Shown: positions 26,379 through 64,000 of the stretch, one piece after another
Numbering within the stretch: the stretch's first letter is position 1
Layout: each line of letters opens with the position of its first letter
DNA from: an uncultured bacterium
GTDB lineage: Bacteria; Patescibacteriota; Microgenomatia; Levybacterales; UBA12049
Assembly (NCBI GenBank): GCA_963826535.1
Contig: CAWGXL010000001.1
Location: 78,336 to 142,335, forward strand
Length of the DNA: 64,000 nucleotides
Reading direction: 5' to 3'
Notes under the pieces: model-generated
Seen by the model: the letters and a program-made list of their open reading frames with translations, nothing else
What the model was told of the DNA's origin: nothing
The model's database searches: none
Made by a program: the position numbers and the translations under genes

Positions 26379-26382
26379 CTAG

Positions 26383-26595: not shown

Positions 26596-27405
26596 ATGCA
26601 AACACTGGAACAAAGACCACATGCCATTGCTGACATTCTAACAACTGATAGTCTCCCACTGAGAGAAAGTCGATTAGTTAAAAAAAGAGAAAATATTGTA
26701 TACAATAACCAGGATGAAAAAAATAGAAAAAAATTTCAACCACAGATAGATGCTTTAAATCAGTTGGGATACTCCAAAAATGATGCGATAGATTTAATAC
26801 TCTTCAGCCTCCGATTGTTCGATAATACAACCACTAAACGAGAAAAGGGAAGCAGGATTTATCACGAAGGAGATCCAGCCGAGTCAGTAGTTTTACTAAA
26901 GAGTGGACATGCGCTTGTCTACAATAGTGAAAGATACGGAAAACGAAATATAATTGAAATAGCCGACAGCCCTATGTTCTTAGGAGATGAAATTCTTCAT
27001 GAAATTCAGCGAAGGGAATACACAATAGAAGCACTTACAAACTGTAGTTTTCAAACTGTACAAAAAGAAAAATTTGCGGAACAACTCAAACAAGAACCAA
27101 AACTAGCAACCCTTCTATTTGTTACACAAAGCATAAAAAAACACCGCCTAGAAAATCGAATGCTCGACTTAATGTCCAAAAAAGCTCTCTTACGCGTAGC
27201 ATCTGCTTTTTCAGAATTTATAAAAATTCCAGGAATTTCGCCGCAGCAAATAACATATCAATTAATCGCGGATTATTCAGGTTGTTCCAGAGAAACGGTA
27301 ACTCGTGAAATGGCAAGACTTAAAGATGCTCAAATTTTACAATGGGTAAGTGGGATAGGACCTCAAATCAATGATGAAAGCGCATTAAAAGCGCTTACCG
27401 ATTGA
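26596..27405 (+). CDS. Crp/Fnr-family transcriptional regulator
   Basis: cNMP-binding-like beta-roll (GDPAESVVLLKSGHALVY) and C-terminal HTH (SRETVTREMARLKDAQILQ). Confidence 0.7.
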   Translation: MQTLEQRPHAIADILTTDSLPLRESRLVKKRENIVYNNQDEKNRKKFQPQIDALNQLGYSKNDAIDLILFSLRLFDNTTTKREKGSRIYHEGDPAESVVLLKSGHALVYNSERYGKRNIIEIADSPMFLGDEILHEIQRREYTIEALTNCSFQTVQKEKFAEQLKQEPKLATLLFVTQSIKKHRLENRMLDLMSKKALLRVASAFSEFIKIPGISPQQITYQLIADYSGCSRETVTREMARLKDAQILQWVSGIGPQINDESALKALTD

Positions 27406-27418
27406 AGGGTTACTTCTG

Positions 27419-27502
27419 TGCCCAAGAGAGGACTTGAACCTCCACGCCTTTTCAGGCACAGCGTCCTGAACGCTGCGTGTCTGCCAGTTTCACCACCTGG
27501 GC
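27419..27502 (-). tRNA. tRNA-Leu (anticodon CAG)
   Basis: Minus-strand GCCCAGGTGGTGAAACTGGCAGACACGCAGCGTTCAGGACGCTG...GGAGGTTCAAGTCCTCTCTTGGGCA; anticodon loop TTCAGGA. Confidence 0.85.
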
Positions 27503-27576
27503 AATTAATTAACCAATTCTATCAAAAGGCACGAAACTTGACAACTAAAAAGCGATTTGCCATTATACAATTATAG

Positions 27577-28152
27577 ATGAAAAGGGTAATACTTGGCGTC
27601 GCATTTGTCGCAATTACTCCAATTGCGTTCCTTTTTGCACTCATTTTAACCCTGGCCTCATATCACAAAAACTATATTTCCCAGGCATTCATCCTAAGCC
27701 GCACGAATACAGTCGCGTATGCTGCCCTTCCAACTTCTCAAAATACTTTTTCCGCAAATATCAGTGAACTAGACGGACGTGCTGAAAAAATTAGACAATT
27801 TTTACAAAGATATAACTCGCCACTTGAACCTTACGCACAAGACATTGTAGACGCGGCAGATACATATGGACTCGACCATCGCCTTATTCCGGCAATAGCA
27901 ATGCAGGAATCCAATCTCTGCCTCAAAATTCCTACTGACTCATATAACTGTTGGGGATTCGGAATATATGGTGGCAAAGTCCACAGATTTAGTGATTACA
28001 AAGAAGGAATTTATGCGGTTTCAAAAACTCTGGCAACAAAATATCATAATAAAGGGCTTATAACTCCCGAGCAAATAATGACTAAGTGGACTCCGTCAAG
28101 CAATGGAAGCTGGGCTTTTAGCGTTAATCATTTCATGAACCAACTTAATTAA
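27577..28152 (+). CDS. membrane-anchored glucosaminidase-domain (FlgJ-like) peptidoglycan hydrolase, putative
   Basis: N-terminal TM; AIAMQESNL and YNCWGFGIYG resemble Glucosaminidase-family motifs; low certainty. Confidence 0.45.
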   Translation: MKRVILGVAFVAITPIAFLFALILTLASYHKNYISQAFILSRTNTVAYAALPTSQNTFSANISELDGRAEKIRQFLQRYNSPLEPYAQDIVDAADTYGLDHRLIPAIAMQESNLCLKIPTDSYNCWGFGIYGGKVHRFSDYKEGIYAVSKTLATKYHNKGLITPEQIMTKWTPSSNGSWAFSVNHFMNQLN

Positions 28153-28160
28153 AATACACC

Positions 28161-28189
28161 TTGACAAACCTATAGTTAAGTGATAATAT
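28161..28189 (+). promoter_or_regulatory. candidate sigma70 promoter upstream of tRNA-Leu(TAG)/tig
   Basis: TTGACA (28161-66), 17-nt spacer, TAATAT (28184-89) preceded by TG. Confidence 0.35.
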
Positions 28190-28398
28190 ACCAGGCAGAT
28201 CCTCAGGTGCTTGACCAAAACAAACACGTGGGGATTTATTTTGTTTATACCCCTTTTTAATTGTAAATAAATAGGCTATAATAAATCAGCTTTAATAACT
28301 AATTTCTGCCTTATAATTTTAAATTTGAACTATAAAAAGCAAAATTTTTAAACGTCTGTTCGGCTAATGACTAATAGCAAAAAGCTGAGAGTTAACTT

Positions 28399-28483
28399 GG
28401 GCCTGTGGCGGAACTGGCAGACGCGTACGGTTTAGGACCGTATCCCGAAAGGGGTGGAGGTTCAAGTCCTCTCTGGCCCACCA
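28399..28483 (+). tRNA. tRNA-Leu (anticodon TAG), CCA encoded
   Basis: GGGCCTGTGGCGGAACTGGCAGACGCGTACGGTTTAGGACCGTA + variable arm + GGAGGTTCAAGTCCTCTCTGGCCCACCA; one T-T mismatch in the acceptor stem. Confidence 0.8.
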
Positions 28484-28513
28484 AATCCTTATTTCGTAAG
28501 TCTTAATCTAATT

Positions 28514-29344
28514 ATGAATAAATCAATAGTAGATAAACAACCGGATGGAACTATTAAATTAACAATAACTCTCTCCCAGGAAGATATTAAAAAAACACGT
28601 CAGGAAGTAATCGCTGAAATTTCCAAAAATACCAAAGTAGCCGGTTTCCGTCAAGGTAAAGCACCTACCTCGTTAGTTGAAGAAAAAATTGACTTAGAAA
28701 AAGTAAACGAAGAAATTCTCAAAAAATTGCTTCCGCTTGCATATTCACAAGCTGTACAAACCAACAATATTAAACCAATAATGAACCCCAAAATACATCT
28801 GGAAAAATTAGAACTCGAAAAAGAGTGGGTATTCACAGCATTAACCTGTGAACTGCCGGTTATAGATTTAGGCGCATACAAACAAAATGTACAAAAAATA
28901 ACGGCAAAAAGCAAAATAATAATTCCTGGAAAAGAAGAAAAAAAACCAAGCAGTGAAGAAGTTATGAAAGCTATAGTAGAGAGCACCAAAGCAAAAATTC
29001 CCACAGTTCTCATAGAACAGGAAACTGATAGACTGCTTTCACAGCTCTTAAATGATATTAAAAAACTAGGGCTTAATCTGGATCAGTATTTAGCTTCAAC
29101 AAATAGAACACCCGAAATATTAAGACAGGAAAATTCAAAACGTGCTGAAGAAGATATAAGACTAGAATTTGCTCTGCAGAAAATAGCGGAAACAGAAAAA
29201 ATTACAATTGAACCAAAAGAGATAGAAGAAGCAATCCAAAAATCCACGAACGAAACAGAAAGAGCCAGGCTTGAAAGTAACCGGTATATGCTTGCTGCTA
29301 TTCTCAGACAGCAAAAGACCATTGATTTTTTGCTGAATTTATGA
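28514..29344 (+). CDS. tig: trigger factor, short form (ribosome-binding N-domain + C-terminal arm domain, apparently no PPIase domain)
   Basis: MNKSIVDKQPDGTIKLTITL...AGFRQGKAPTSLVEEK matches the Tig N-terminal domain (GFRxGxxP signature). The track's longer ORF from 28454 overlaps the tRNA, so the start at 28514 is preferred. Confidence 0.7.
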   Translation: MNKSIVDKQPDGTIKLTITLSQEDIKKTRQEVIAEISKNTKVAGFRQGKAPTSLVEEKIDLEKVNEEILKKLLPLAYSQAVQTNNIKPIMNPKIHLEKLELEKEWVFTALTCELPVIDLGAYKQNVQKITAKSKIIIPGKEEKKPSSEEVMKAIVESTKAKIPTVLIEQETDRLLSQLLNDIKKLGLNLDQYLASTNRTPEILRQENSKRAEEDIRLEFALQKIAETEKITIEPKEIEEAIQKSTNETERARLESNRYMLAAILRQQKTIDFLLNL

Positions 29345-29348
29345 TACA

Positions 29349-30071
29349 GTGCGGCTAGACATGAAAGCCTATAAGCAAAAAACACGGCCTGAAATATCGT
29401 CTTACGAACAAGACGATATTAATCTACCCAAAAATATTGCACAGGAATTGGGGAATCAAGGAAAATTAGCCACAGATGACTTTTTTAAGCAACTCCTGGG
29501 TAATGCTGCCAATGATAGTCAATATAATGAAAACGCACAGTCTCATAATGCAAAAGAATCACCAAAGAATGAAAAAGATCCTTCTTCCCTCGGAGGCATA
29601 GTTTTTGAATTAAGAAGCCAAATACTCGGCAATCTATTACCCACTTCTAGTGAGAAAATGTCCAAAAGGGATCGCGAGCCTGGTATAAACTACCACAGTG
29701 AATACTACCAATCCATAACCAGATCCGGTGAAAGACACTCCCAGCGTGAAGTAAACGAGCACAGCAAACAAATCCAATCGATCATGCAAGAACTTAAAAA
29801 ATTAGCTTCTTCAACAAAAGCATTGCAAGTAGAATTTGGATCTCTTGTAGTGGAGCCCCCACCGGCAGATCCCGGCAAATATTATATAAATTTCTTTGAA
29901 TGGATGCTCATTATGATACGCCAATCAAGACAAAAAGTTGAAGACTCAAAGGCTTGGATGGATACTGTACAAGGTAAAAGCAAAAAAATGGGCTACTGGG
30001 GAAAAGCCAAAAAAATGGGCACCACATTCACTCAAGCCAACGAAAGAAATGTCGCAACTTCTACCGGATAA
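29349..30071 (+). CDS. hypothetical charged/low-complexity protein
   Basis: 240-aa ORF rich in K/E/Q/S with no TM; an alternative start at 29361 is possible. Confidence 0.35.
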   Translation: MRLDMKAYKQKTRPEISSYEQDDINLPKNIAQELGNQGKLATDDFFKQLLGNAANDSQYNENAQSHNAKESPKNEKDPSSLGGIVFELRSQILGNLLPTSSEKMSKRDREPGINYHSEYYQSITRSGERHSQREVNEHSKQIQSIMQELKKLASSTKALQVEFGSLVVEPPPADPGKYYINFFEWMLIMIRQSRQKVEDSKAWMDTVQGKSKKMGYWGKAKKMGTTFTQANERNVATSTG

Positions 30072-30198
30072 GTTTATCTGTGCTAATTCACTCCCCGCAC
30101 ATTGTTTTCAAGCCTTCCATTTGTTAAAATTAGTTTTGCTTTAATAGATAGGTATAAATTCTCATTCTAGATACTTAGTTCGCGCCCTTAACGCAATT

Positions 30199-30270
30199 GG
30201 ACTCGTAGCTCAGTGGTAGAGCGCTTCGTTGACATCGAAGAGGTCAGAGGTTCGATACCTCTCGGGTCCA
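30199..30270 (+). tRNA. tRNA-Val (anticodon GAC)
   Basis: GGACTCGTAGCTCAGTGGTAGAGCGCTTCGTTGACATCGAAGAGGTCAGAGGTTCGATACCTCTCGGGTCCA; anticodon loop TTGACAT; no CCA encoded. Confidence 0.85.
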
Positions 30271-51009: not shown

Positions 51010-51699
51010 TTATTTTAAAACCAATATCACGGCTTCTGCGATTTCTTTCATTGTTTTTCGCTTCGCCATTGCTTCCTTCCGCAGATAATGATAAGCCTCG
51101 CTCTCGCTAATATTCCGTACATTCATTAGTATTCCCTTTGCTTCCTCTATAATTTGTCGGGCTTGCAATTTATCTTCCAGCTGACCAACTCTCCTCTCTA
51201 AAATAATATTCGCGAATGCTGAAGCGATAATCTTAACAATTGCCTCGATGCTCTGAATTTGCTGATTAGAAAATGAGTAGGGGAGTTTACTTTGAAAATT
51301 TATAACGCCTACAACACCATTCTCATCAAAAATTGGTACAGACAAAAAACCTTCAAACTTATCTTCAGGTAATTCTTTAAAAAATTTAAACCGGGGATCC
51401 TTATATGCTTCTTTCGCGAGAACTACAGTTTTTCCATGCACAACAACCCATCCGGTAATACCCTCACCTTTTTTCATAGTAATATGACCCAACAGTTCAT
51501 CATGCCGCCTTTTAGAGCCAACTAAAATTAATTCTTTTCGCTCCCGGTCATAAAAATAAATCAAACACGCATCAACGGGAATAACTTGATTAACCACCTT
51601 AATAAGCTTCTGTAAAAACTCATTAAAATCATAATGATTGAATACAACCAAATCTGATAAAAGACCAATAATAGTAAACCAGGGAACCGGCTTTTCCAT
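51010..51699 (-). CDS. GAF-ANTAR RNA-binding antitermination-type regulator
   Basis: GAF-like N-terminal domain; C-terminal ANTAR-like helix set (IIEEAKGILMNVRNISESEAYHYLRKEAMAKRKTMKEIAEAVI). Confidence 0.7.
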   Translation of the reverse strand: MEKPVPWFTIIGLLSDLVVFNHYDFNEFLQKLIKVVNQVIPVDACLIYFYDRERKELILVGSKRRHDELLGHITMKKGEGITGWVVVHGKTVVLAKEAYKDPRFKFFKELPEDKFEGFLSVPIFDENGVVGVINFQSKLPYSFSNQQIQSIEAIVKIIASAFANIILERRVGQLEDKLQARQIIEEAKGILMNVRNISESEAYHYLRKEAMAKRKTMKEIAEAVILVLK

Positions 51700-51948: not shown

Positions 51949-53283
51949 TTATCTCTCCATTACTCTAACTAAACCTTTAATAGCATCTACCTCAACAAAG
52001 TCTCCATCATGCAATATTTGAGTTATATGCATAACACCAACTATACAAGGAATTTTAAACTCACGGCTAAGTATCGAAACATGCGCAGTCACACCGCCCT
52101 CTTCCGCCACTATTGCAGCTGCCTTATGGATTATTAACAGATAATCAGGAGTGGTATTACAAACAACCAATATATCACCTTCCTGAAATTTAGCAAAATC
52201 AGACTGACCTAGAACAATTTTAACTTTTCCATAAGCTTTCCCCTTTGCAGTTACCCGGCCCTTTAACTCCGTTATTCCCTTTAGCTTTAGATACGTTGAC
52301 CGAAATTCTTCAGCAGAATCTCCTCTTTTAATAACAAATCCCTCAGGCCTGCCAATAAATAATAACTGCTTTCTATCTCTAATTTGATTAAAATCTACCT
52401 TCCTATCTTCAAATACATCTACTATTTCCATCGGCAGGAAATACCTTAATAGCTCACTTTCAATTCCATGCTCGACAGACCACTTATCCCACAACTGATT
52501 AAAATTACCAAGCAACCTATTGATCAAAAATTTAGCCGAATCTTTAAGATATGCTGACTCCTGTGCTAATCGGATGAGAGATTGTTCATCCTTATTATAT
52601 GAATCGAATTTAATTTCTTTGTGATCTACATTTAAATCTTTTATATGTGTATTCTGATCCAACGACTTTAATCGCTTTAACTCGGCTATGTACCAGCTTT
52701 GTTCTTTAGGTTTTTCATTATAATACCCTCCATATAGCCAGCGGTAGCGGTCATAAATCTGCTCTAATATTCGGTCCTCAACTTTATTTGCAGTATGATT
52801 ATTAGCTAAACCAATTAATTCTCGCTCCTCGGCAATCGCAGCAGCCGGCTTAGTTGGTTGGGCAAATAATCCGATCTCCTCATCGCTTAAAAAACTCTTG
52901 AGTTGGGGTAATAACCCATGATCAATACCTCGAAGAATAGTTGGCAGCCGGAATGCTCTTATTACACATTCTATATAATCACGGGCATCAAAATTTTTAT
53001 TTGAATTAAAAAGTTCAGGAATAAAACTTTCAATAGCTAAAATTTCCCCTTCAATGAGATTAATTTTGTCCCGGTAATATTCAACATACTGCTCAAATTC
53101 ATTTTTTTTATAAATCCAATAAAAAGATACTAGATTATTCTTAAGGTCAATTACTTGGCCAACAAAGTGGGGGAGTCTTTTATCAATTAGAGAAAACTGC
53201 TGAGCAAAAATATAGATGGTATATGCATAGCACCATCTCTGACCAATAAGGTCATATCTATATTGACTATAATTAAGACTCAT
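51949..53283 (-). CDS. stand-alone PEP-utilizing-enzyme mobile (phosphohistidine swivel) domain protein with ~340-aa helical N-domain
   Basis: C-terminal GRVTAKGKAYGKVKIV...DYLLIIHKAAAIVAEEGGVTAHVSILSREFKIPCIVGV...DGDFVEVDAIKGLVRV (PEP-utilizers, catalytic His in TAHVSI); N-domain shares a (K/R)YxWL..Y motif with modules of the giant protein. Confidence 0.7.
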   Translation of the reverse strand: MSLNYSQYRYDLIGQRWCYAYTIYIFAQQFSLIDKRLPHFVGQVIDLKNNLVSFYWIYKKNEFEQYVEYYRDKINLIEGEILAIESFIPELFNSNKNFDARDYIECVIRAFRLPTILRGIDHGLLPQLKSFLSDEEIGLFAQPTKPAAAIAEERELIGLANNHTANKVEDRILEQIYDRYRWLYGGYYNEKPKEQSWYIAELKRLKSLDQNTHIKDLNVDHKEIKFDSYNKDEQSLIRLAQESAYLKDSAKFLINRLLGNFNQLWDKWSVEHGIESELLRYFLPMEIVDVFEDRKVDFNQIRDRKQLLFIGRPEGFVIKRGDSAEEFRSTYLKLKGITELKGRVTAKGKAYGKVKIVLGQSDFAKFQEGDILVVCNTTPDYLLIIHKAAAIVAEEGGVTAHVSILSREFKIPCIVGVMHITQILHDGDFVEVDAIKGLVRVMER

Positions 53284-53459: not shown

Positions 53460-54368
53460 ATGACCTTTCTCGAAAAATACAATCTTCTAAAAAAATCTGT
53501 CCCCGTTTCAGCGATAACAATTGACACCGCTACAATTGATTGTGAATATGTCGATTATGCTAATAGAAGTAAAAATTGTTATTACTGTTTTAACGCAAAT
53601 AAACTTGAAAATAGTGTGTATACGATCATGGGATGGGGCAATAAATTAGATGATTGCATTTCAGTAACAGAATCTGAAAAATGTTACCAGTGTGTTGACT
53701 GCACTAAGTGTTTCGATTCTACATATCTAATAGATTGTAATAATTCAACTGAGTGCCATTTTTCAGCGTTTCTAAATTCCTGCACTGATTGTTTCGGCTG
53801 TGTCGCCATAACACACAAAAAGTATTGTATCTTTAATAAACAATATACGAAAGAAGAATATTTTAAAAAGGTTGAGAAGTTAATAAATGAAAAGCCGGAA
53901 AAGATTCTAGCCCAAATGTTTGAATTAAAAAAACAAATACCACATCCGGCAAGCCAACAATTCAACAGCGAAAACTGTCCTTATGGTGACTATGTATATG
54001 ATTCAAAGAATTGTTATTTGAGTTTTAACATATATTATGTTGAAAATTCGGGGTATATTTTTACAAGCGGTACTATTAAAAATTCATGGGATTTATATTT
54101 TTCCGGAGGATATAGGGCAAGAGGAACAATTTCCGACCGGTGTTATGAACAGGTAAATTCCGCAGAATGCTACGACTCTGCATTTCTTGATTCATGCCAA
54201 GGCTGCACAAATTGCTATTACAGCGCAAGTCTCATTAACTGCTCAGACTGCCTCGGGTGTGTTGGATTAAAAAATAAAAAGTATTGCATTTTAAATAATC
54301 AGCTAACCAAACTGTCGTATGAAAAAGCAGTAAAAGAAATTAAAAAAGAGCTTGGATGGAAAGGTTAA
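53460..54368 (+). CDS. cytoplasmic Cys-rich protein with internal tandem duplication (2 x ~140 aa)
   Basis: More than 40 Cys in CxxC/CxxxC spacing; each half ends C(F/L)GCV(A/G).(T/K).KKYCI(F/L)N(K/N)Q(Y/L)TK..Y(F/E)K; no signal peptide. Confidence 0.45.
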   Translation: MTFLEKYNLLKKSVPVSAITIDTATIDCEYVDYANRSKNCYYCFNANKLENSVYTIMGWGNKLDDCISVTESEKCYQCVDCTKCFDSTYLIDCNNSTECHFSAFLNSCTDCFGCVAITHKKYCIFNKQYTKEEYFKKVEKLINEKPEKILAQMFELKKQIPHPASQQFNSENCPYGDYVYDSKNCYLSFNIYYVENSGYIFTSGTIKNSWDLYFSGGYRARGTISDRCYEQVNSAECYDSAFLDSCQGCTNCYYSASLINCSDCLGCVGLKNKKYCILNNQLTKLSYEKAVKEIKKELGWKG

Positions 54369-54641
54369 AGTCTAACCAATGCCCGCCTTAGTATACATTC
54401 CTGATGTAAAAGCCCCCGCCCCGTTTTCCCTCTGCTATAAAAAGGGGTGCGCGAAAATCAACATCATAGTATCTAGAAATAAACGGCGGGAAACAACCCG
54501 GAGCAAAAAATGAACAAAAAAATGGAGAGAAATGCCCTTCCTGCTTGATGATATTCTCCGGCCGCACTTGCCGGATAAACCTATCCTCAGCTCTTATTTT
54601 TATTGCCATTTGAACACTATAATTTCACCGCATTCCCATTA

Positions 54642-56345
54642 TTAACGAGGATTCTGAATCCTTGAATAAACCTGTGTTCCGCCTTTGTAGACTCTTTCTA
54701 TTGTACCTTCTAGCTCTGCTATCTTATCCGCATTATATGTAACATCAGATTCTCCCTCAGCAAGCTTTCTAAGAAGTGAAGGATTGGCAACAATAATATC
54801 CGCCTTATGTCCTGCCTTCATCAAACCTCTTTCATCCCCCTCAAATTGCGCAGTAGTAACCGTGGATGCCAACAGTGCTTGTGTTAAAGATAAACGCTGT
54901 TGCTCCTCAGGGGCATGAGTCGCAAGATATATAGCATAAAGCATGCTATCACTCATTCCTGCTTCACCGTCAGTCCCAAACATCATGGGAATTCCCGCAT
55001 TCACAATCTCCTGATGCGGACAAATCCAGCGTGTCCTATCGCCCAACCGGTCTTTATAAACATAATCCAATAAGAAATTGGGCTGGGGTACCACCCAGAT
55101 ACCCAAATCTTTAACTCTTCTTAATGTTTTCTCAATTGGCAACGGTAATTCAAAATGTTCAATTCTAAATCTTATAGGATCAATTTCACCGCTACGCCCC
55201 TTTTCAATCCATTTCTGCGCAACATTTAGAGACCGTTGAATACCTGCATCGCCAATTGCATGAATTGCCACATTAGACAGTCCATGTTCACGGGCAAGCT
55301 TTATGCCCTCATTCATTTGCCTGACTGTATCATAAAAAATTCCATGACCGCTTTTACCCCCATGTTGATGATCTTCGTATTCCTCGCTCATCTTAGCTGT
55401 ATGAGAACCAAAACTGCCATCAGCAAGAAGTTTAATTCCCGCTATCTGGGGAAATTCTGTTTGATCTAATAATCCCGCCCTCTCTAGTGAAGGCATTAAC
55501 TTTCCTATTTCTACTAACTGTTCCGGCCGCAAATGAAATCGGGTTACAGGAAATTCTAATCCTTTTTCTCCCCATCTTTTTCTACTTCTAAGTGCTGCGA
55601 TAAACTGATTATTTGTTAAAGCTAGTAAGTCATGCATTGACGTAATGCCTTGTGTTAGATACCCCTCGACTTGTGTATCAATTGCCTGCTCAATATTTTC
55701 TATAGAGTATGCAGCCTCGGCAACCTCTATCGCTTTTATGGCATATCCTTCAGAAAAAGTCCCGTCTCTCTTAAAACTACCGGCTGGCTTTTGACTCGAT
55801 TGTTTGGCAAGAATACGCAATTTTTCGCCCATTCTATTAGATATAACCCCTGCATGAAATGAATTGTCAAAAACCAACACATCTCTATTAGGAGCAATCC
55901 TCTCCAAATCAACATTAGTAAGGTCTTTCACCTTGGTTGTATCAAGCCCTATCAAAACTAGAGGTTTTGTTGGGTCTTCTTTCTCTTTAGCCATTCGCCC
56001 AAGTTTTCTAAGCACATCGGCTTTTTCCATACGCGAAACATCACCTGTTCCGACCAACTTTAGGAATGCGAAATCTAACGGATGTTGGTGAGCATCAGTT
56101 AGTCCTGCAAGTACAGCACCGCCTTCGACTCGCTCTCCAACCATATTTCCTTTCTCTTTCCTTTCCGCGTCAAGCCAATCCCGTACATCATCCGGAGGAC
56201 CTACCTTTACAATCCTTCTAATTCTGGGGTCAACCACAACCTGCGTTTCCCGAAGCATCTCACCACCCGAAACAACCGTTTCAGGTGCAAGAAGGGTGAA
56301 ACCTCTATCTCTGCTGGAAATTCCTTGGGATTCTTCTGCACTCAT
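54642..56345 (-). CDS. metal-dependent amidohydrolase (Amidohydro_3-type TIM-barrel hydrolase)
   Basis: GLTDAHQHP metal-binding start, HAIGD and C-terminal FGTDGEAG motifs; 567 aa. Confidence 0.75.
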   Translation of the reverse strand: MSAEESQGISSRDRGFTLLAPETVVSGGEMLRETQVVVDPRIRRIVKVGPPDDVRDWLDAERKEKGNMVGERVEGGAVLAGLTDAHQHPLDFAFLKLVGTGDVSRMEKADVLRKLGRMAKEKEDPTKPLVLIGLDTTKVKDLTNVDLERIAPNRDVLVFDNSFHAGVISNRMGEKLRILAKQSSQKPAGSFKRDGTFSEGYAIKAIEVAEAAYSIENIEQAIDTQVEGYLTQGITSMHDLLALTNNQFIAALRSRKRWGEKGLEFPVTRFHLRPEQLVEIGKLMPSLERAGLLDQTEFPQIAGIKLLADGSFGSHTAKMSEEYEDHQHGGKSGHGIFYDTVRQMNEGIKLAREHGLSNVAIHAIGDAGIQRSLNVAQKWIEKGRSGEIDPIRFRIEHFELPLPIEKTLRRVKDLGIWVVPQPNFLLDYVYKDRLGDRTRWICPHQEIVNAGIPMMFGTDGEAGMSDSMLYAIYLATHAPEEQQRLSLTQALLASTVTTAQFEGDERGLMKAGHKADIIVANPSLLRKLAEGESDVTYNADKIAELEGTIERVYKGGTQVYSRIQNPR

Positions 56346-56350
56346 AATAT

Positions 56351-57310
56351 TTATTTCACATCTATTTTAAGAAGATAGGTGATTAGTGCCATATTGCAAT
56401 ATACCATATCCTCCATAATAGCTTTACCAATCATTCTTGAGTCACTATCTGTCTCTTTAAGAGCAACTAACCGGCCATCAGTTGTCGCGCGCGGTTCACC
56501 GACCAATATCATCGCGTCTTTCCGGACACGAGCCAGTTTTTTATTTGAGAAAGGAACGAATTTTTTATTGAAAGCGTCGACCAGCTTAGGATCTTCTCCT
56601 GATTGCGGAAGCCCTTCTATAATCCACAAGAGGTCAACTTTATCAATGAAATTCTCCAATTTTTCCTGCTTGTAAGTTGAACCGTTTGCCACGACCGTTT
56701 TTCGGATATGATCGGGAAGTTTGAATTCCGGAATTACCGAATCCTCAAAGAATTCTACACCAAACCGGCTCATAACTTTCACGCCGGCTTTTGCCGGGCG
56801 GGATGACTTGCTCATACCAAATAATCCTACCTTGAGACCCTTTAGAGTTCCGCGCTTTTTTATAACTATATTACTGAAAACAATGCCTCCTATAGAGTGC
56901 TCTTCGCCCCCGCACATCGCGTTGATCAAGGGAACCCGGAAACCTTTTTTTGCGAAATCGGTAAGATCCAATTCTTTATGCCGCACCGCCATGACATCGC
57001 ATAAAGGCGCGACTCCATGCAGGGTATCAGATAGATCTTCCTCCCCGGTTTCCAAATACGTTCCTTTAATTCCCGCGATTCCAAACCATCCTCCGCCCAA
57101 CCGTATTATCGCAGCTTGCAAACTTGTGGAAGTACGAGTGCTTTCTTGAAAAAACATCGTCGCGATAACTCTTCCAGGACATAAGTGGGTAAAATTCTTC
57201 CCTGCTTTTATTCCCTTCTCAAATATCGACGCCCTACGAAAAACCTCTTTATATTCCTTAGTGGTCAAATCCTCTGTTCTTGTAAAATGCTTCATATACT
57301 CAACTCTCAA
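56351..57310 (-). CDS. aspartate/ornithine carbamoyltransferase-family protein, divergent
   Basis: Carbamoyl-phosphate-binding STRT motif (FFQESTRTSTSLQAA), the R-H region (MAVRHKE) and an ATCase-like fold order; the HPxQ and HCLP motifs are degenerate. Confidence 0.6.
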   Translation of the reverse strand: MRVEYMKHFTRTEDLTTKEYKEVFRRASIFEKGIKAGKNFTHLCPGRVIATMFFQESTRTSTSLQAAIIRLGGGWFGIAGIKGTYLETGEEDLSDTLHGVAPLCDVMAVRHKELDLTDFAKKGFRVPLINAMCGGEEHSIGGIVFSNIVIKKRGTLKGLKVGLFGMSKSSRPAKAGVKVMSRFGVEFFEDSVIPEFKLPDHIRKTVVANGSTYKQEKLENFIDKVDLLWIIEGLPQSGEDPKLVDAFNKKFVPFSNKKLARVRKDAMILVGEPRATTDGRLVALKETDSDSRMIGKAIMEDMVYCNMALITYLLKIDVK

Positions 57311-57314: not shown

Positions 57315-58796
57315 TTAGTTTTTATTATACATCTCTTTAATAATTTTTACCACACCTTCATTCGCATCCACCTCCACCAAATCCCCATCCCTCAAAACTT
57401 TAGTAGCAATTTTCGTGCCCACTATGCAAGGTTTTCTTAACTCGCGGCTGACAATAGCCGCATGGGAAGTCAATCCTCCCGTGTCTGTAATCACCGCCAT
57501 TGATCTTTTCATAATAAATACATACTCGGGAGTGGTCATTGGAGCTACCAAAATACTATTCTCTCGGAAATGATCCGCGTCTTTTGGATCTAAGATTACC
57601 TGAACAAAACCGGTCAGCTTGGACACACTACCGCGACTTGCGACTACCCCTCTCAATTCAGTGATATTTTGACCGGCCTTTTCCTCCGAATAAAGACTCC
57701 AGTAATTTTCTGCTTGATCCAGCATAATTTCTGTCACAGCTCCATCAGCGCACAGGAAACCAAAAGCTCTTCTTCTGCGATCAAGAAGAGAAGTTACGTC
57801 TTGTTTCTTATTGATTATTCGTTCAATCTCTAATTCTCGAAGATTTAAAAGATCATCTTTCTTGTACTTATAGCGGCGGCAAACTTCGTTCAGCATCAGA
57901 TTCTTATAATGAAGATATATCCAAACTTCTCTCTTGCGTGCGTCTTGCCATTCAATTCCGGCCACAATCGCTGCGGCCATTGCCGTAATTCTTTGGGGAA
58001 GCTTATATTTCTCTGTCAGGGCAATTTTCCTCTCCTTTGTATGTGCTCGCTTCTCTTCAAATTCTGCTCTCGGAGATGCCCCTTGCTCTCTCTTTTTCCT
58101 GGAAAAGTAATCAACATCAACTATTTCCACTCCGTCGTAACTATTTTTCAACCAAAAATATTTTTTTTGGTGCCCTAGAATATCATTGGTTTCAGCCAAA
58201 TCTATTTCCTCCTCCTGATAAAAAGAAGGCTTTTCAGGTGCGGTCAACACTTCCATCATATGCTGCCGCTCCTTATCATTGGAAGTGAAAGCTTTCAATT
58301 CTTCCTCCAGAATAGGCAAAGAGCCATAATTTCCGAGCTCCGGCACTGTCACATATATCCAGAAGTTAATAGTCAGTACATGAAAACTATGCCAGAGACG
58401 TGCGAATTCCGTTTGAGTTAGTTGGGGTAAATGTAATCGTTCAATCTTCTGTTCGGCCCTATGTAATTTCTTCAGATGTTGAATATAATTTCTATACAAT
58501 CCTCTGCGTTTCTTGGTTGGAAGCATATATTTCAGGAACACGCTCCCGCCGTATCGATGCATATCCCGCCATTCGTTCACAAAGACCATACGCTTATCCC
58601 GATAAAGCGCCAGACCTTTCGGCCATTTCTCACCCTTAAATGCCTTCTGGAAATAATTTCGGTTGAAAATCCCCTCAAGAAAGTCGGCCGTAAAAAATAT
58701 CCGTATCGGGGCAGGCCCCCAACGAAAGAGTTCGGCATTAGGGTCGAGTGGAAAATTCTGTTGTTTCATCTTCATATTTTTATGTACATTATTCAT
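57315..58796 (-). CDS. stand-alone PEP-utilizing-enzyme mobile-domain protein (module paralog)
   Basis: C-terminal ...GVVASRGSVSKLTGFVQVIL...VAPMTTPEYVFIMKRSMAVITDTGGLTSHAAIVSRELRKPCIVGTKIATKVLRDGDLVEVDANEGVVKII; N-domain KKYFWLKNSY motif as in the giant protein modules. Confidence 0.75.
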   Translation of the reverse strand: MNNVHKNMKMKQQNFPLDPNAELFRWGPAPIRIFFTADFLEGIFNRNYFQKAFKGEKWPKGLALYRDKRMVFVNEWRDMHRYGGSVFLKYMLPTKKRRGLYRNYIQHLKKLHRAEQKIERLHLPQLTQTEFARLWHSFHVLTINFWIYVTVPELGNYGSLPILEEELKAFTSNDKERQHMMEVLTAPEKPSFYQEEEIDLAETNDILGHQKKYFWLKNSYDGVEIVDVDYFSRKKREQGASPRAEFEEKRAHTKERKIALTEKYKLPQRITAMAAAIVAGIEWQDARKREVWIYLHYKNLMLNEVCRRYKYKKDDLLNLRELEIERIINKKQDVTSLLDRRRRAFGFLCADGAVTEIMLDQAENYWSLYSEEKAGQNITELRGVVASRGSVSKLTGFVQVILDPKDADHFRENSILVAPMTTPEYVFIMKRSMAVITDTGGLTSHAAIVSRELRKPCIVGTKIATKVLRDGDLVEVDANEGVVKIIKEMYNKN

Positions 58797-58800: not shown

Positions 58801-61800
58801 CTACAGTATTTTCACCACCCCATGATTCCCTTTTACCTCAACCAAATCCCCATCCTTCAAAACTTTTGTTGCATTTCGTGTCCCTATCACGCAAGGCTTG
58901 CCCATCTCCCGGGCGATAATAGCTGCATGACATGTAATGCCGCCCTCATCAGTCACAAACGCAGCCGCCTTTTTCATAGCCGGCATATACTCTGGCCGCG
59001 TCATCGAAGTAACAAGAATATCTCCTTCTTCGACTTTTGCAAGCGAATTTACAGAGAGACATACTTTCACTCTCCCCACCACATTTCCTAGCGAAGCTGC
59101 CTCTCCATGAAGATCCCCCTGTGTTTTCACTTGCTTTTGTGCAAACATTGGCGCTAGCTGCTCATACAACGCCCCGCTAGCCACATCAACCCGTCCCTTA
59201 GTTTTAAGGTAAAGCCCGCCCTTTCTTCTCTCCGCGAGTATTGGCGCAAGCGCTTTGATCGCAGCCATATTTTGATTTAATTCAAATGGTGTAAGATATC
59301 GTAGTAAATTTATAGAAATATTAACCCTCCTGGAAAGCTCTTCCAATAACAGGTCTAGCCACTCTATAGCCATCAGAATATTCTTTTTCCGCTCGTCCTG
59401 CCAGAGGGTCAAAAACTCAAGCGCCTCAAGCTGCACACCCAGTTCTTTTGGTAGTCCAAGTTTTTTAAGCAGCAAACCTTTCTGCTTCAGCAGATTAGTA
59501 TTGATAGATTTTTCATGTTTAATTTCATTTGCTTCTTTTAAAACATCATCGTATGTAAGAGGTTTTCTTCCCAAATATGAATTACGAAGCCAATAATAAT
59601 TTTTCAAATAATTTTTAATTAGAATATCAGGATCTTTGGCAGATGCAATCCTAACCAAATCATCATATGCCTCTTGCGCGAATGATTTTGCTAGGGGAGT
59701 AGTGAGAAGTACAAATGCCGCGTTTAGTTTCTTGGAATCTTCAATGTATTTCCTAAGCTCTGCTTTAATTTTTTTATCCGCGACAAGTACAAAAGGCTCA
59801 ATTATGTGGCTTATACAAACGCTATCACTCATTGCCCTCGAGCTTTCTCGCAAGAGGCTTAGAAACTCGCCATCACTCAAGGGAATTAATGCTGTTTTTT
59901 GAATTTTTGTAAATAATCGCTGCGATTTTTGCATAATGAGCTCATGCTTTTTCTTTATGCCCACAAAATAATTAGGGTTTTGTTTAAGTTTCGCCAAAAG
60001 TTCATTAGCCATTCGTTTCAGATCTGCCATTCTATATAACATATACCCGTAATCGTCTTTTATATCAAACACGAAACACGTATACGCTATTCCTGCAAAA
60101 TCAGCTGCTGAGAGAATAAGAAGTGGAGTCACGTTCAACCCCTGCGGATACCACCGTTCGGCAGACAACACTTTCATAGTCCGAACTATTTCTTCATTAC
60201 CCGAACCTTTCTTGCGCGCGTCACTCGCCCTCTCCAAAACCCTCACAGCCCCCGCATCCGCATCCACTTCCACCAAATCCCCATCTTTCAAAACCTGAGT
60301 CGCGATCTTCGTGCCAATAATACAAGGCTTTCTCATTTCGCGGGCAATAATGGCTGCGTGACTTATCACACCCCCTTCGTCAGTTACAAAAGCAGCCGCT
60401 TTTTCCATAGCTGCTGTAAAATTGGGCGTCGTCATAGTCGCAACAAGAATATCACCCTTTCCAACCCGCATACTGTCCTCATTTGTCAAAACGATTTTTG
60501 CCAGACCGCGCACAACCCCTTTGCATGCCACCAAACCGGTAATCTCATTGACAGATTTTTTGCTCCTGTTAAAAACACTCCGTTTTTGTACATACCTACG
60601 CGCATCTTCTCCCGCCACCAAGATTACTTTTTCACCAAAATAAATTAGTGACTCTTTTTTTCTATCTCCGAGCTTGCTCTGAATATCAAACTTACCGTGC
60701 AGTGCATCCCTAACCTCAAGCGGCGAAAAGTAGAGCAAATCATGGTATGATACCCCAAGATGTCTTGCCGCAGATACTAGAAATGGTTTGAAGATTGCCG
60801 ATGCATGATTGAAAAAATCTGCCCGTTCAGTTCGAAGAAAAACAATAGTTCGGATCTGCTTGGCCAACATTCTTTCTTCATTCGTAAATCGTTTTATAAG
60901 TTGGCCTATTCTCCTTTCTCTTTCATGTCGTCTTTTACTTCTTTCAGTAAACGCTTGTAGGGCTTTATCTCGTGCCTGGCTTTCAAGCCGCTGGAGCACA
61001 TCTTCCTTACTCCACCAATCTCCTATAAAAAAACGGATTGCCAACCAACCGTATTTATCTGCATGTTTCGCTGCAAGCCTCTGCTTTTCCTTCTCGGTTT
61101 TAAATTTGTGAATCGCCAGTTTCAAAAAATCTTCTTGTTCTTTGTCTGTAGCCGTTAATTGATTCGGATTTGTAAGTAATTCCAAAACGATATTTTTTTC
61201 TTCCTCGCTCTTAGAATATTTTTCAGCTAATTCTCTTGTAATTTCCATTTCCGGTTTCTCAAAAAACGCGATAGAATAATAAACGCAGTAATCTTTCGCC
61301 TGTTCATAAAATTTTGCGATTACTTCACCTGAAACCCTTTTTTCTAAATCCCCTGAGAAACTTTTTCTCAAATCCCCTGCGAACTTAACCAAGTTATTGC
61401 CGGAAATTATACAGTCCGTTAGAATAGTATTAATATAATCAATATTCTCGCGCTTAATTTTTTCTTTTACGCGTGCGGTAAAATCATCAATATCCGATTT
61501 AACATTGAAAAAATCGTAATTATGTTTTTCAGAATCAGAGGTACGTACAAACCACCTGACAGGCTTATTCAGCTTGAATTTCTTTATAAGACCCGCTTCA
61601 TCAATTAATCCGCCTACAACAATAGCCGAAGCAAAATAAGGCTCAATTCTCTGACCGAAATAAACAATATCTTCATTTTTCACATCTGGAATCTCATTCA
61701 ATACCTTTGCGCCAGCCTCACCACCGTCAGCCCTCTCCAGTAACCTCACCACACCTTCGTCAGCATCCACTTCCACCAAATCACCGTCATGCAAAACCTT

Positions 61801-64000
61801 TGTAGCAATCTTTGTGCCGAGGATACATGGAATACCAAGCTCTCTCGAAACAATGGCTGCATGGGAAGTAAGCCCTCCTTCATCTGTCACAAAAGCCCCC
61901 GCTATCTTCATAGCCGGAGTCATTTCCGGACGCGTCATTGATGAAACGAGAACATCCCCGGAGGATACTTTACCTATGTCATTACTTTTCAAGACAATCT
62001 TCACTCTTCCTTGCATCTTTCCTGTTTGCGCTACAATTCCACTAAATGTTTCCACTACTTTCACATCTTCCTGGAGATGATTATAGAAAAAATATGCTCC
62101 GTCGCCGGAAAGAATAACCTTTTCCTCTTTACTTTCCACCGCGACTATCATCTTTTTGCGCTTTTCAATTTCTTGCTCTGACAAAAAAGTATGAGTCTTT
62201 ATTGCTTTAGATATTTCTCCCCAAGAGTAGAACCAAAGATGCGATAATGGCTCCCTAAACTTTTGACTCACCTTTTCTAAGAAAAGCTTATGATAATGAT
62301 TTGCGCGAAGAACAAATGCTTTTCGCACGTCCTGCATTTCTGCAAACTTCTCTACAATTCCTATATATTCTTTCAGTAATAACGACGGATGATATTTTTT
62401 AAACAAATCTTCTTTTTTTCGCTTAGTGTTCTCTGGGGCAGTTTCAAGTTCATATACTTTTACTTTTATTTCAGCTTCCGGCAACCTTGCGGTTTTAAAC
62501 ACTTTCTCCCTGAAGAAATCTTCGTCAAGCACTTGAATGTCAGCATAGTTATTCTGTATCCAAAACCACTTTTGTTGATGCTTCAGAAGTAGTTTATCAA
62601 AATGAGATGTTTTAGATTGAATCGCTAGATCCAAGCGATCAATTTCCTCTTGAGTAATAAATGAATGCACAACCGGCGAAGTAAGCAGCGCTGCTGTTGC
62701 ATTATAATCCAGGCCATATTTTTTCACATACGCTTCAAGCTCAGGTGTGATCCACTGTTCCGGCTGAAAGCCGCATGCTTCCTGTATGGCACAAGCCAGC
62801 GCATACTCAAAAATATATTCTTCCACAAAATCCTGATAAGCGCTCAAAATGACTGGGAAATTATCCGCCGCAAGCGCAGACTCAAGTACGCTTATCTTTC
62901 CATTGAGCCGCTGACACGAATCCCGCCAGTCATGATAGTGTTTTTGAAGATAATTTTTATTTTTCTTGAGATTTGCAAAATAATGATTACGTAGCTTAGT
63001 AAATTCATCGGGCAGGTAGTAAATATCCCAATAATCATTTTGCAGAGCAGAAATGTGCAGTTTATAATAAAAACCGGAATAATCTCCCCACTTGTTCCAT
63101 AACAATTGAACAAAATCAGCTGGATAAAATGTTGCATGAAGACCCTTGTGAATTAATGGCGGATGAATATCATATTTTGCAATTAGATATCTTTCTATTT
63201 TTTGAGACGTAGTATCTGCATTCTCATGCGTATCCTTTTTAAGCGTCGTAATCGGCCTGCTCTGTGTGATATAAAACTTCCCTTTTTCAAAAGCCCACTC
63301 AATATCACAGGGAAATCCATAATGCTTTTCAATCTTCAAGATAAGCTCAGTCAGTTCAAGAATTTGCCCATCTGTGAGTTTTTGCTGGCTTCCTTTTTCA
63401 GGAAGAATAGATTGCCATTGGTTATTTGATTGTTTAGAGTTCTGGATTCCCGCCTCCGCGGGAATTACGGAAGAGGAACGATAAAGTCCTCGCTCTTGTG
63501 TCACAACATGTCTTTCAATAACTCTTCGAGGGTTTTTCTCGACCACATATGAGTCAGGTGTGATCTGTCCGGATACAATTGCCTCACCCAATCCGTACCC
63601 TGCCTCAATGATAAGCTGGTTTCGGTCTTCCGTAACCGGGTGAACTGAAAATGCAATGCCTGACTTTTCGCTTTGTATCATCTTTTGTACCACAACTGCA
63701 ACAGATATTTTCTGCGAGTGGAGTTGTTTTTCAAATCTATAAAAAATTGCCCGGGGTGTAAAAAGTGAAGCCCAGCATTTTTGTACATTGATAAGTAGAG
63801 TTTTATCTGTCGTGTTAAGAAAACTATCCAGTTGTCCGGCCCATGCCGCAGAACTTGAGTCTTCCGCTGTTGCAGAAGAACGAACAGCCACATATTCAGC
63901 TCCCAGTTTTCTAAATTCTTGTACTATCTCCCTTGCAATCTGATCCGGCATCTTTGCGCTTTGTATTAAAGCCTGGATTTTCTCAGATGCATATTCAACC
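58801..64000 (-). CDS. giant PEP-synthase/rifampin-phosphotransferase-like protein: ATP-grasp (PPDK_N) domain + three tandem [helical domain + phosphohistidine swivel domain] modules; 5' end beyond window
   Basis: N-terminal ...VAVRSSATAEDS...GFPCDIEWAFEKGKFYITQSRPIT (PPDK_N C-terminal signature). Three PEP-utilizers domains: DEGGLTSHAAIVSRELGIPCILGT, DEGGVISHAAIIAREMRKPCIIGT and DEGGITCHAAIIAREMGKPCVIGT, each followed by DGDLVEV. The frame stays open from the Met at 63951 to the window edge (…VEYASEKIQALIQSAK-M…). Confidence 0.8.
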   Translation of the reverse strand, partial: VEYASEKIQALIQSAKMPDQIAREIVQEFRKLGAEYVAVRSSATAEDSSSAAWAGQLDSFLNTTDKTLLINVQKCWASLFTPRAIFYRFEKQLHSQKISVAVVVQKMIQSEKSGIAFSVHPVTEDRNQLIIEAGYGLGEAIVSGQITPDSYVVEKNPRRVIERHVVTQERGLYRSSSVIPAEAGIQNSKQSNNQWQSILPEKGSQQKLTDGQILELTELILKIEKHYGFPCDIEWAFEKGKFYITQSRPITTLKKDTHENADTTSQKIERYLIAKYDIHPPLIHKGLHATFYPADFVQLLWNKWGDYSGFYYKLHISALQNDYWDIYYLPDEFTKLRNHYFANLKKNKNYLQKHYHDWRDSCQRLNGKISVLESALAADNFPVILSAYQDFVEEYIFEYALACAIQEACGFQPEQWITPELEAYVKKYGLDYNATAALLTSPVVHSFITQEEIDRLDLAIQSKTSHFDKLLLKHQQKWFWIQNNYADIQVLDEDFFREKVFKTARLPEAEIKVKVYELETAPENTKRKKEDLFKKYHPSLLLKEYIGIVEKFAEMQDVRKAFVLRANHYHKLFLEKVSQKFREPLSHLWFYSWGEISKAIKTHTFLSEQEIEKRKKMIVAVESKEEKVILSGDGAYFFYNHLQEDVKVVETFSGIVAQTGKMQGRVKIVLKSNDIGKVSSGDVLVSSMTRPEMTPAMKIAGAFVTDEGGLTSHAAIVSRELGIPCILGTKIATKVLHDGDLVEVDADEGVVRLLERADGGEAGAKVLNEIPDVKNEDIVYFGQRIEPYFASAIVVGGLIDEAGLIKKFKLNKPVRWFVRTSDSEKHNYDFFNVKSDIDDFTARVKEKIKRENIDYINTILTDCIISGNNLVKFAGDLRKSFSGDLEKRVSGEVIAKFYEQAKDYCVYYSIAFFEKPEMEITRELAEKYSKSEEEKNIVLELLTNPNQLTATDKEQEDFLKLAIHKFKTEKEKQRLAAKHADKYGWLAIRFFIGDWWSKEDVLQRLESQARDKALQAFTERSKRRHERERRIGQLIKRFTNEERMLAKQIRTIVFLRTERADFFNHASAIFKPFLVSAARHLGVSYHDLLYFSPLEVRDALHGKFDIQSKLGDRKKESLIYFGEKVILVAGEDARRYVQKRSVFNRSKKSVNEITGLVACKGVVRGLAKIVLTNEDSMRVGKGDILVATMTTPNFTAAMEKAAAFVTDEGGVISHAAIIAREMRKPCIIGTKIATQVLKDGDLVEVDADAGAVRVLERASDARKKGSGNEEIVRTMKVLSAERWYPQGLNVTPLLILSAADFAGIAYTCFVFDIKDDYGYMLYRMADLKRMANELLAKLKQNPNYFVGIKKKHELIMQKSQRLFTKIQKTALIPLSDGEFLSLLRESSRAMSDSVCISHIIEPFVLVADKKIKAELRKYIEDSKKLNAAFVLLTTPLAKSFAQEAYDDLVRIASAKDPDILIKNYLKNYYWLRNSYLGRKPLTYDDVLKEANEIKHEKSINTNLLKQKGLLLKKLGLPKELGVQLEALEFLTLWQDERKKNILMAIEWLDLLLEELSRRVNISINLLRYLTPFELNQNMAAIKALAPILAERRKGGLYLKTKGRVDVASGALYEQLAPMFAQKQVKTQGDLHGEAASLGNVVGRVKVCLSVNSLAKVEEGDILVTSMTRPEYMPAMKKAAAFVTDEGGITCHAAIIAREMGKPCVIGTRNATKVLKDGDLVEVKGNHGVVKIL

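Follow-up and report, generated by a model that had tools for sequence, protein, structure and literature searches.

The stretch of DNA analyzed here (the window, 64,000 nt in total) comprises positions 78,336-142,335 of contig CAWGXL010000001.1 in the assembly GCA_963826535.1, which derives from an uncultured member of the Patescibacteriota (Microgenomatia; Levybacterales; UBA12049). Its composition is bacterial, with a class A penicillin-binding protein, a bacterial-type PheT and RecG at 38% GC. At its end the minus strand carries a giant open reading frame (ORF) in which a single N-terminal ATP-grasp domain is followed by three tandem units that resemble rifampin phosphotransferase (RPH). 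Each of these units, here denominated modules, consists of a helical RPH-like substrate domain (RD) and of the mobile phosphoenolpyruvate (PEP)-utilizers domain (PF00391), here called swivel. We suggest that this giant is probably a hub-and-spoke dikinase for small molecules, driven by ATP and present here in its fused form. Far from standing alone, it is a member of a very large family of the candidate phyla radiation (CPR) of bacteria and of DPANN archaea, whose fused and split versions convert into each other. Its components and chemistry are known from RPH and from two-component dikinases. The one-to-many architecture, the fusions of as many as 8 modules, the arrays with as many as 11 genes and the restriction to CPR and DPANN are apparently undescribed.

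Domain content and fold of the giant protein

A first-pass annotation of the window had described a minus-strand ORF of more than 1716 aa that is still open at the edge, and this description holds. From the first in-window ATG the ORF (58801..63951, minus strand, stop codon 58801-58803) encodes 1716 aa, and the frame stays open up to base 63999, which gives 1732 codons in the window. The ATG at 63951 is the first one inside the window and not the true start. In the public protein collection the full-length protein is P0001, which has 1805 aa, is 100% identical and comes from a contig of 148.5 kb; its 73 extra N-terminal residues (MGFTRDF...GGKGASLGEL) lie beyond the window. The numbering of the catalytic histidines (713, 1214 and 1691) follows the window protein of 1732 aa and not full-length P0001. 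The giant is divided as follows:

63202..64000, minus strand: ATP-grasp (PPDK_N) domain, cut by the window edge, with Lys21 of GGKG among the residues outside (Pfam, RPH-Lm alignment, Foldseek)
62020..63201, minus strand: RD1, 394 aa, with the fold of the rifampin-binding domain of RPH (AlphaFold2 model and Foldseek)
61720..62019, minus strand: swivel 1 with His713 (PF00391; verified motif)
60517..61719, minus strand: RD2, 401 aa, the most divergent RD (five-module alignment)
60217..60516, minus strand: swivel 2 with His1214 (PF00391; verified motif)
59086..60216, minus strand: RD3, 377 aa (five-module alignment)
58801..59085, minus strand: swivel 3 with His1691, including the stop codon at 58801-58803 (PF00391, best stretch aa 1657-1727)

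Pfam places one PPDK_N (PF01326) ATP-grasp (E 1.2e-73) on residues 3-266 of the 1732-aa window protein and PEP-utilizers swivels on three stretches (E 1.6e-78), as had been read from the letters. All three catalytic histidines are intact on codon level: His713 in GGLTSHAAI (codon 61861-61863), His1214 in GGVISHAAI (codon 60358-60360) and His1691 in GGITCHAAI (codon 58927-58929). These are the motifs named in the first-pass annotation, and merely the positions given there (about 693, 1193 and 1673) are about 20 aa too low. The PEP/pyruvate TIM barrel (PEP-utilizers_C, PF02896), already reported as missing, gave no Pfam match at E <= 0.1 across the 1732 aa, so that this is not an ordinary PEP synthase (PpsA). 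Neither receiver, HPr or output domains nor carrier or tethering domains were detected in the giant by the Pfam scan.

The threefold repeated unit of roughly 480 aa could be reproduced; it measures ~480-500 aa, with RDs of 394, 401 and 377 aa and swivels of ~95-100 aa. On protein level the three units are 31-42% identical (BLASTP), and on DNA level the repeat is limited to 223 nt of the swivel with 66-70% identity. Because of this divergence a collapse or expansion by the assembler is excluded, and the repeats are real. An alternative genetic code or read-through as explanation of the long ORF was rejected, since the standard code reads through 5.2 kb without any stop and more than 100 proteins share the architecture. 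The conserved (K/Q)(K/Y)(W/Y)FW block, claimed for all three units, is found in unit 1 (QKWFWIQNNY) and unit 3 (KNYYWLRNSY); in unit 2 it is degenerate (DKYGWLAIRF). In module 2 DKYGWLAIRF replaces the FWLKN motif, and LRTERA is found in place of the WQDxRK motif.

Two standalone modules, which were absent from the first-pass annotation, are encoded downstream on the same strand:

57315..58796, minus strand: fourth module, standalone RD plus swivel, ORF of 493 aa, His codon 57462-57464 (Pfam scan; five-module alignment)
51949..53283, minus strand: fifth module, P0121, 444 aa (RD of 348 aa plus swivel), with His401 in GGVTAH, codon 52081-52083 (PF00391 E 2.8e-23; five-module alignment; verified motif)

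The ORF of the fourth module starts 4 nt 3' of the stop codon of the giant, and the called protein P0122 (486 aa, start 58775) starts 25 nt 3' of it. The exact 493-aa form is absent from the protein collection, where the called gene is the 486-aa P0122. All five window modules (three fused and two standalone) align end to end. Their swivels are 43-63% identical (mean 53%) and their RDs 17-24% (mean 20%), with RD2 being 17-19% identical to RD1 and RD3. Conserved swivels are expected if all of them must dock on one common ATP-grasp, and divergent RDs are expected if they bind different acceptors. The closest relatives of RD1 are not its sister RDs; they are found in P0242 (69%) and in the standalone P0244 (500 aa, 55%). 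P0242 has 808 aa, and judged by this length its N-terminal extension has room for a putative ATP-grasp. The best relative of RD2 is the standalone P0260 (40%), and RD3 is nearest to the standalones P0271 and P0281 (37-39%).

The layout is nearer to RPH than to PEP synthase, as had been proposed, since the domains follow the RPH order and full-chain RPH from Listeria (RPH-Lm) ranks first in Foldseek. An AlphaFold2 model of P0001 residues 1-830 (predicted local distance difference test 84.6, predicted template modelling score (pTM) 0.60) retrieved RPH-Lm structures as all of its top five matches (E 2.8e-37 to 3.8e-27), followed by the ATP-grasp protein HpeI (9goj) and the isolated RPH ATP domain 5hv6 (TM 0.91). 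In these Foldseek comparisons of AlphaFold models RPH is the sole solved structure that matches the whole module. For the swivel alone one of the top matches is Geobacillus pyruvate kinase 2e28 with its PEP-utilizers domain at the C-terminus.

In RPH-Lm the key residues are K22/R117/T136 of the ATP site, R666/E667/K670 of the phosphotransfer site and the catalytic H825 (PMC4844700); R666, E667, K670 and H825 were confirmed at their published positions in the sequence of the Listeria record. The ATP-grasp of the giant is 38% identical to that of RPH-Lm, K21/R113/S132 correspond to K22/R117/T136, and the DIEW and QSRP motifs are kept. Identity of the RD to RPH is ~14%. In local mode hhalign aligned the family with RPH over residues 285-476 only, and the correspondence of the N-terminal part of the RD is derived from the structure comparison and from a forced global alignment. 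In this forced global profile alignment the FWLKNSY motif (FW(L/I)xN) is placed on R593-W-I-E-N-P-L of RPH and the family-invariant Q-D-x-R-K on R666-E667-x-x-K670, the latter in a part of low confidence.

In sequence the ATP-grasp and the swivels are nearer to true PEP synthases (PpsA 8a8e) than to RPH, and therefore the family represents a separate branch and not a subgroup of RPH. The NCBIfam scores were 440 bits (cut-off 999) for NF041857 and 320 bits (1700) for NF000283, both RPH models; 552.6 (739.75) for TIGR01418 and 588.2 (598) for PRK06464, both PpsA models, even with the sum taken over four stretches; and 386 bits (1300 and 1350) for the PigC/RedH models NF052631 and NF052632 (E 2.7e-115).

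Fused and split forms in CPR bacteria and DPANN archaea

A search for homologues in CPR and other genomes revealed the same architecture in more than 100 proteins and the same kind of modules in 78 CPR/DPANN loci. The 120 best homologues of the giant comprise 1110-2980 aa, and their source names refer to Patescibacteria/CPR lineages, Nanoarchaeota or Woesearchaeota. Exactly one ATP-grasp match together with 1-6 swivels is present in 116 of these 120 proteins (115 of them with 2-6): three swivels occur in 67, four in 23, two in 14, five in 9, six in 2 and one in 1. The ATP-grasp is N-terminal in all 116 with the exception of P0030; the other four proteins show zero or split ATP-grasp matches. 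The catalytic histidine is found in 394 of 394 modules of multi-module proteins. For the RDs an alignment (hmmalign) to a narrow hidden Markov model (HMM) of the P0122 family left 50-60% unaligned at the motif columns, so that motif frequencies are lower bounds. P0122 itself is a member of a tight orthologue family of ~470-aa standalones with 41-55% identity, which occurs in CPR bacteria as well as in DPANN archaea.

The 78 loci were obtained by a scan of one genome per GTDB species. Their labels are CPR or DPANN, save for some metagenome-assembled genomes (MAGs) labeled Gammaproteobacteria or Methanosarcinales, an Aminicenantes bin and several records with the bare label ‘bacterium’ or ‘archaeon’. 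The MAG labels ‘uncultured Gammaproteobacteria’ and ‘uncultured Methanosarcinales’ look wrong or like placeholders, and we doubt them. Besides fusions the loci contain arrays with up to 11 co-directional single-module genes within 22 kb, usually accompanied by 0-1 standalone ATP-grasp gene of ~310-330 aa (range 281-378). In the 81 loci 34 ATP-grasp domains stand against 328 swivels (~1:10), and 56 of the 58 multi-gene loci have all their genes on one strand.

The largest fusion is an ORF of 3761 aa with one ATP-grasp and eight swivels from Candidatus Woesearchaeota (JAFGGS010000004.1; L040 6239-17521, plus strand). The richest loci (L002, L027, L036, L039 and L045) contain 9-11 modules each. 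In L002 (201-18328, on a 901-kb contig) two giants of 1619 and 2300 aa are combined with three standalone modules, with HD and His_Phos_1 genes between them, and a P0122 orthologue (43% identity) directly follows the 2300-aa giant in the same arrangement as in the window.

The extent of the family was estimated with an RD-only profile built from the five window RDs without swivel. With a limit of E <= 1e-3 it retrieved 4,162 representative clusters out of 1.84 billion, and with E <= 1e-10 still 2,395, most matches being proteins of ~470 aa. In plasmids of cultured bacteria no relative covering more than 42% of a module was found; a match on a Rhodococcus plasmid, considered as HpeH-like gene, proved to be an ordinary full-length PpsA. 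In public databases thousands of members carry the names ‘PEP-utilizing enzyme’, ‘phosphoenolpyruvate synthase’ or ‘rifampicin phosphotransferase’. Annotations such as ‘rph-like’ or ‘ppsA’ in CPR and DPANN genomes should not be read as rifampin resistance or gluconeogenesis.

The diversity of the modules is considerable. At >=35% identity 516 RDs from 241 proteins fall into 73 clusters plus many singletons, and modules of one polypeptide are almost never members of the same RD cluster. The same cluster can occupy position 1, 3, 4 or 6 in different proteins, neither order nor composition is conserved, and most module types are also found as lone genes. The 322 RDs from the arrays fall into 154 clusters at >=30% identity, and many clusters contain members from bacterial as well as archaeal loci; 90% of these RDs have their nearest relative in another genome. 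Judged from these sequences, the modules are old and distinct lineages that were joined, separated and shuffled by fusion and fission of genes. CPR and DPANN have module types in common, among them the P0122 family at 40-50% identity (e.g., L006, L012, L024 and L035 compared to L007, L010 and L011). This sharing of orthologous modules points therefore to gene transfer of modules between the domains.

The putative dikinase and competing explanations

In the proposed mechanism the single N-terminal ATP-grasp would bind ATP as in RPH, in PEP synthase and in the two-component dikinases PpsAB, CreHI and HpeHI. A swivel would dock on it and its histidine would attack the beta-phosphate, with loss of the gamma-phosphate as inorganic phosphate (Pi) and release of AMP. 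The phosphohistidine would then swivel back to its own RD, where the phosphate could be passed to the bound acceptor (net reaction: ATP + acceptor + H2O -> AMP + Pi + phospho-acceptor). One ATP-grasp would serve several modules, three of them in cis in the giant, and the two downstream standalone modules would very probably be charged in trans by the same domain. Each RD represents a separate, anciently diverged lineage and hence presumably has its own acceptor. The domain content, the folds, the conserved histidines and ATP-site residues, the exchange between fused and split forms and the ~1:10 ratio of ATP-grasps to modules were observed, whereas the charging of every swivel by one ATP-grasp, the small-molecule nature of the acceptors and their identity are inferred.

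A precedent for charging of standalone modules in trans is HpeHI, where HpeI (ATP-grasp) and HpeH (RD plus swivel) act without a stable complex (PMC12167813). The module types that are fused in some genomes and split in others follow a Rosetta-stone pattern, which we count in favor of the proposed dikinase. In PpsA and pyruvate phosphate dikinase (PPDK) the central swivel domain is tethered at both ends. The tethering of swivels 1 and 2 of the giant at two ends is thus compatible with swivelling.

Compared with named systems the giant is closest in layout to RPH-Lm (PDB 5FBS/5FBT/5FBU, 5HV1; PMC4844700), with which it shares ATP-grasp, rifampin-binding-domain fold and His swivel in this order. 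RPH has one RD and one swivel in ~865 aa, whereas the giant has three such units in 1805 aa and two more modules in trans. The substrate of RPH is rifamycin; the giant, with scores under the equivalog cut-offs, is not an established rifamycin enzyme. In PpsAB (phenylphosphate synthase), CreHI and HpeHI ATP-grasp and RD plus swivel reside on separate polypeptides (PMC12167813), which is matched by the standalone modules of the window and by the standalone ATP-grasp genes of the arrays. These three systems act on phenolics, show 1:1 gene pairing and occur in Actinomycetota and Proteobacteria (PMC12167813). The present family differs by its one-to-many relation (~1:10, 81 loci), by fusions of 2-8 modules and by its CPR/DPANN hosts, and the giant carries its ATP-grasp in one chain with three modules instead of on a separate polypeptide of ~35-40 kDa. 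With PpsA and PPDK the giant has in common the PPDK_N ATP-grasp and a swivel with GGxT(S/C)HAAI, the domains with the highest sequence scores, and their two-end-tethered swivel corresponds to its swivels 1 and 2. They possess a C-terminal TIM barrel (PF02896) and one swivel, in contrast to the RPH-type RDs and three swivels found here. Also the prodiginine ligases PigC, RedH and HapC show the three-domain layout; they are single-module enzymes, whereas the giant is multi-module and stands outside any pigment-pathway context. From prodiginine ligases it is known that an RPH-like fold can use phosphorylation for the activation of a carbonyl for condensation. A search of the full-text literature (including PMC8204110; most subscription journals lie outside its coverage) revealed no description of multi-swivel proteins or module arrays and only papers on RPH, HpeHI and the CPR resistome.

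As physiological role we prefer that organisms with minimal biosynthesis irreversibly capture or activate compounds which they scavenge or obtain from a host. The authors of the HpeHI study have considered that phosphorylation may trap compounds diffusing into the cell (PMC12167813). CPR and DPANN organisms represent a large share of microbial diversity with ~1-Mb genomes, little biosynthesis and lineage-specific genes that mostly have no assigned function, and single loci spend 15-20 kb on modules of a family with thousands of protein clusters. The swivelling phosphohistidine dikinase principle is found here in an architecture of no characterized enzyme, namely one nucleotide-binding domain with up to eight (perhaps more in arrays) substrate modules. 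More tentatively, and with somewhat less than even confidence, we propose that these organisms hold a combinatorial phosphorylation toolkit with one ATP-grasp loader and many exchangeable carriers in cis and in trans. Well over 100 substrate-specific module types would switch between fusion proteins and separate genes and pass from Bacteria to Archaea or back, and the toolkit would be a major unrecognized route to capture, activate or neutralize compounds of host or environment. If true, this would be a major metabolic or defensive investment of CPR/DPANN organisms, a direct experimental handle on the module substrates and a natural modular scaffold for the engineering of multi-specific kinases.

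Several points weigh against the proposed dikinase. For fermenters with little energy a dikinase is expensive, as each transfer consumes two phosphoanhydride bonds. In module 2 the Asp of the QDxRK motif is missing (LRTERA) and the W-motif is degenerate, roughly half of the multi-module RDs are alignable at the motif columns with the narrow HMM, and the alignment of the RD catalytic motif to RPH lies in a low-confidence region of the forced global hhalign. The pTM of 0.60 makes the inter-domain geometry of the 830-residue model unreliable, and with a modeled span of residues 1-830 no model places swivels 2 and 3 or the trans modules at the ATP-grasp. In 24 of 42 arrays with >=4 modules there is no ATP-grasp within the 10-kb flanks, and the partner has to be assumed elsewhere. 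Finally, the phosphatases, the nucleotidyltransferase and the TrmB-like regulators among the neighbors are each seen in no more than 5-12 of 81 loci and name no pathway.

As the main alternative role the same chemistry could serve a multi-drug or toxin inactivation battery, in which each module is directed against a different antibiotic or host toxin and episymbionts are protected on antibiotic-producing or competing hosts. That RPH is the only solved structure matching the whole module speaks for such a role, as does a repertoire that is diverse (154 clusters among 322 array modules) and shared across domains in the manner typical of resistance genes, and a survey has counted rph-like genes of CPR genomes as resistance genes (PMC8651080). 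We think that this resistome count is an over-reading. The RD is ~14% identical to RPH, the score is 440 bits instead of 999 and nothing points to rifamycin binding; tens of kb of a ~1-Mb genome would be an unusual expense for drug kinases, and the neighboring genes encode phosphatases, nucleotidyltransferase and sugar-type regulators, not efflux or resistance proteins. On balance we regard this explanation as unlikely.

Still less probable is an assembly line or multi-site phosphorylation, with modules acting in sequence on one scaffold (a poly-hydroxylated metabolite, a glycan or a polymer) or activating carbonyls for condensation like PigC/RedH. For this purpose physical linkage and co-direction of the modules would be appropriate. 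PigC/RedH-type ligases share the ATP-grasp-RD-swivel layout and match the giant at E 2.7e-115, and the ATCase-like, amidohydrolase and cytidylyltransferase-like genes within some arrays are possible follow-on enzymes. An ordered line is difficult to reconcile with a module order and composition that are not conserved, with the occurrence of most types as lone genes, with a giant in which the Pfam scan revealed no carrier or tethering domain and with PigC/RedH scores far under the cut-offs (386 versus 1300-1350).

A His-to-His phospho-relay or regulatory protein, with swivel-to-swivel transfer to a final target and helical domains as scaffolds or sensors, is suggested by the presence of several phosphohistidine carriers in one chain, and swivel-like domains are regulatory elsewhere, e.g., the C-terminal domain of Geobacillus pyruvate kinase 2e28. 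We consider it very improbable. Each swivel has a complete RPH-type RD of its own, with a conserved charged motif that the low-confidence alignment places at the RPH phosphotransfer position, modules occur as independent single genes in arrays, and no receiver, HPr or output domain was detected by the Pfam scan. Also the comparative data favor a multi-substrate phosphotransferase over a relay, since swivels are conserved (mean 53%) while RDs diverge (mean 20%) and most module types exist also as standalone proteins.

An ordinary PEP synthase or PPDK is refuted, and so is a wrong joining or duplication of PpsA-like genes by the assembler or the gene caller: the best NCBIfam name is indeed ‘phosphoenolpyruvate synthase’ (PRK06464, 588 bits versus 598) and ATP-grasp and swivels are nearest to PpsA 8a8e in sequence, but there is no PF02896 TIM barrel, the repeats are 31-42% identical as protein and 66-70% over 223 nt as DNA, the 5.2-kb frame is uninterrupted in a genome of 38% GC and over 100 independent proteins, drawn from various assemblies and sources, have the same architecture.

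Neighboring genes

The following genes recur as neighbors of the arrays:

TrmB-like regulator: 12 of 81 loci
His_Phos_1: 10 of 81 loci
HAD phosphatase: 9 of 81 loci
Cytidylyltransferase-like: 8 of 81 loci
HD proteins, two separate families: 5 loci each of 81
Pair of ATCase-like and Amidohydro_3 genes: 4 loci including the window

Genes of phosphatase type and cytidylyltransferase-like genes are located within 5 kb of modules (representatives: L050 13071-14150, L049 4270-4884, L065 20211-20699 and L013 9320-9976). They give weak hints at turnover of phospho-metabolites, or at a kinase step followed by nucleotidyl transfer or nucleotide activation of the products.

In the window the last-mentioned pair (ATCase and OTCase denote aspartate and ornithine carbamoyltransferase) is located between the fourth and the fifth module on the same strand:

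56351..57310, minus strand: ATCase/OTCase-like protein, 319 aa, carbamoyl-phosphate-binding N-domain only (Pfam OTCace_N E 2.6e-24)
54642..56345, minus strand: Amidohydro_3 protein, 567 aa, 5 nt 3' of the ATCase-like gene (Pfam Amidohydro_3 E 2.7e-41)

The ATCase-like protein remains under every NCBIfam cut-off (TIGR00670: 110 bits versus 237). As they share a strand and are spaced by gaps of 4-5 nt, these two genes look like one operon together with the giant and P0122. The pair is found inside or beside arrays also in L004 (3392-6035), L039 (11472-14189) and L052 (14176-16907), which suggests that this cassette is an accessory tied to some modules. A pathway-defining role of the pair was rejected because it is present in just 4 of 82 loci including the window. 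The functional unit reaches past the giant and includes at least two more modules and possibly also this cassette. The anti-phage defence models of PADLOC-DB gave no match for the giant, P0122, the ATCase-like protein or the amidohydrolase, and P0121 matched only at chance level (0.0059). Promoter and terminator scans of 50.5-64 kb yielded the shuffled expectation (38 versus 35.5 and 12 versus 10.3, respectively).

Between the amidohydrolase and the fifth module two further ORFs are located, one of 302 aa (53460-54368, plus strand) with no Pfam, NCBIfam or PADLOC match and one of 73 aa (54388-54609, minus strand) with no Pfam match. Directly 3' of the fifth module a GAF-ANTAR protein, a putative RNA-binding antiterminator regulator, is encoded (51010-51699, minus strand); arrays in other genomes carry TrmB-like helix-turn-helix regulators in its place (12 loci).

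In more distant parts of the window five tRNA genes are clustered on both strands at 24180-30270 with short ORFs between them. An 877-aa protein (18511-21144, plus strand) shows Amidase_2 (N-acetylmuramoyl-L-alanine amidase) as its sole recognizable domain, which is interrupted by a long insertion. A histidine kinase with a GAF domain is encoded at 12297-13772 (minus strand). Both proteins are typical of the cell-surface and regulatory repertoires of CPR bacteria.

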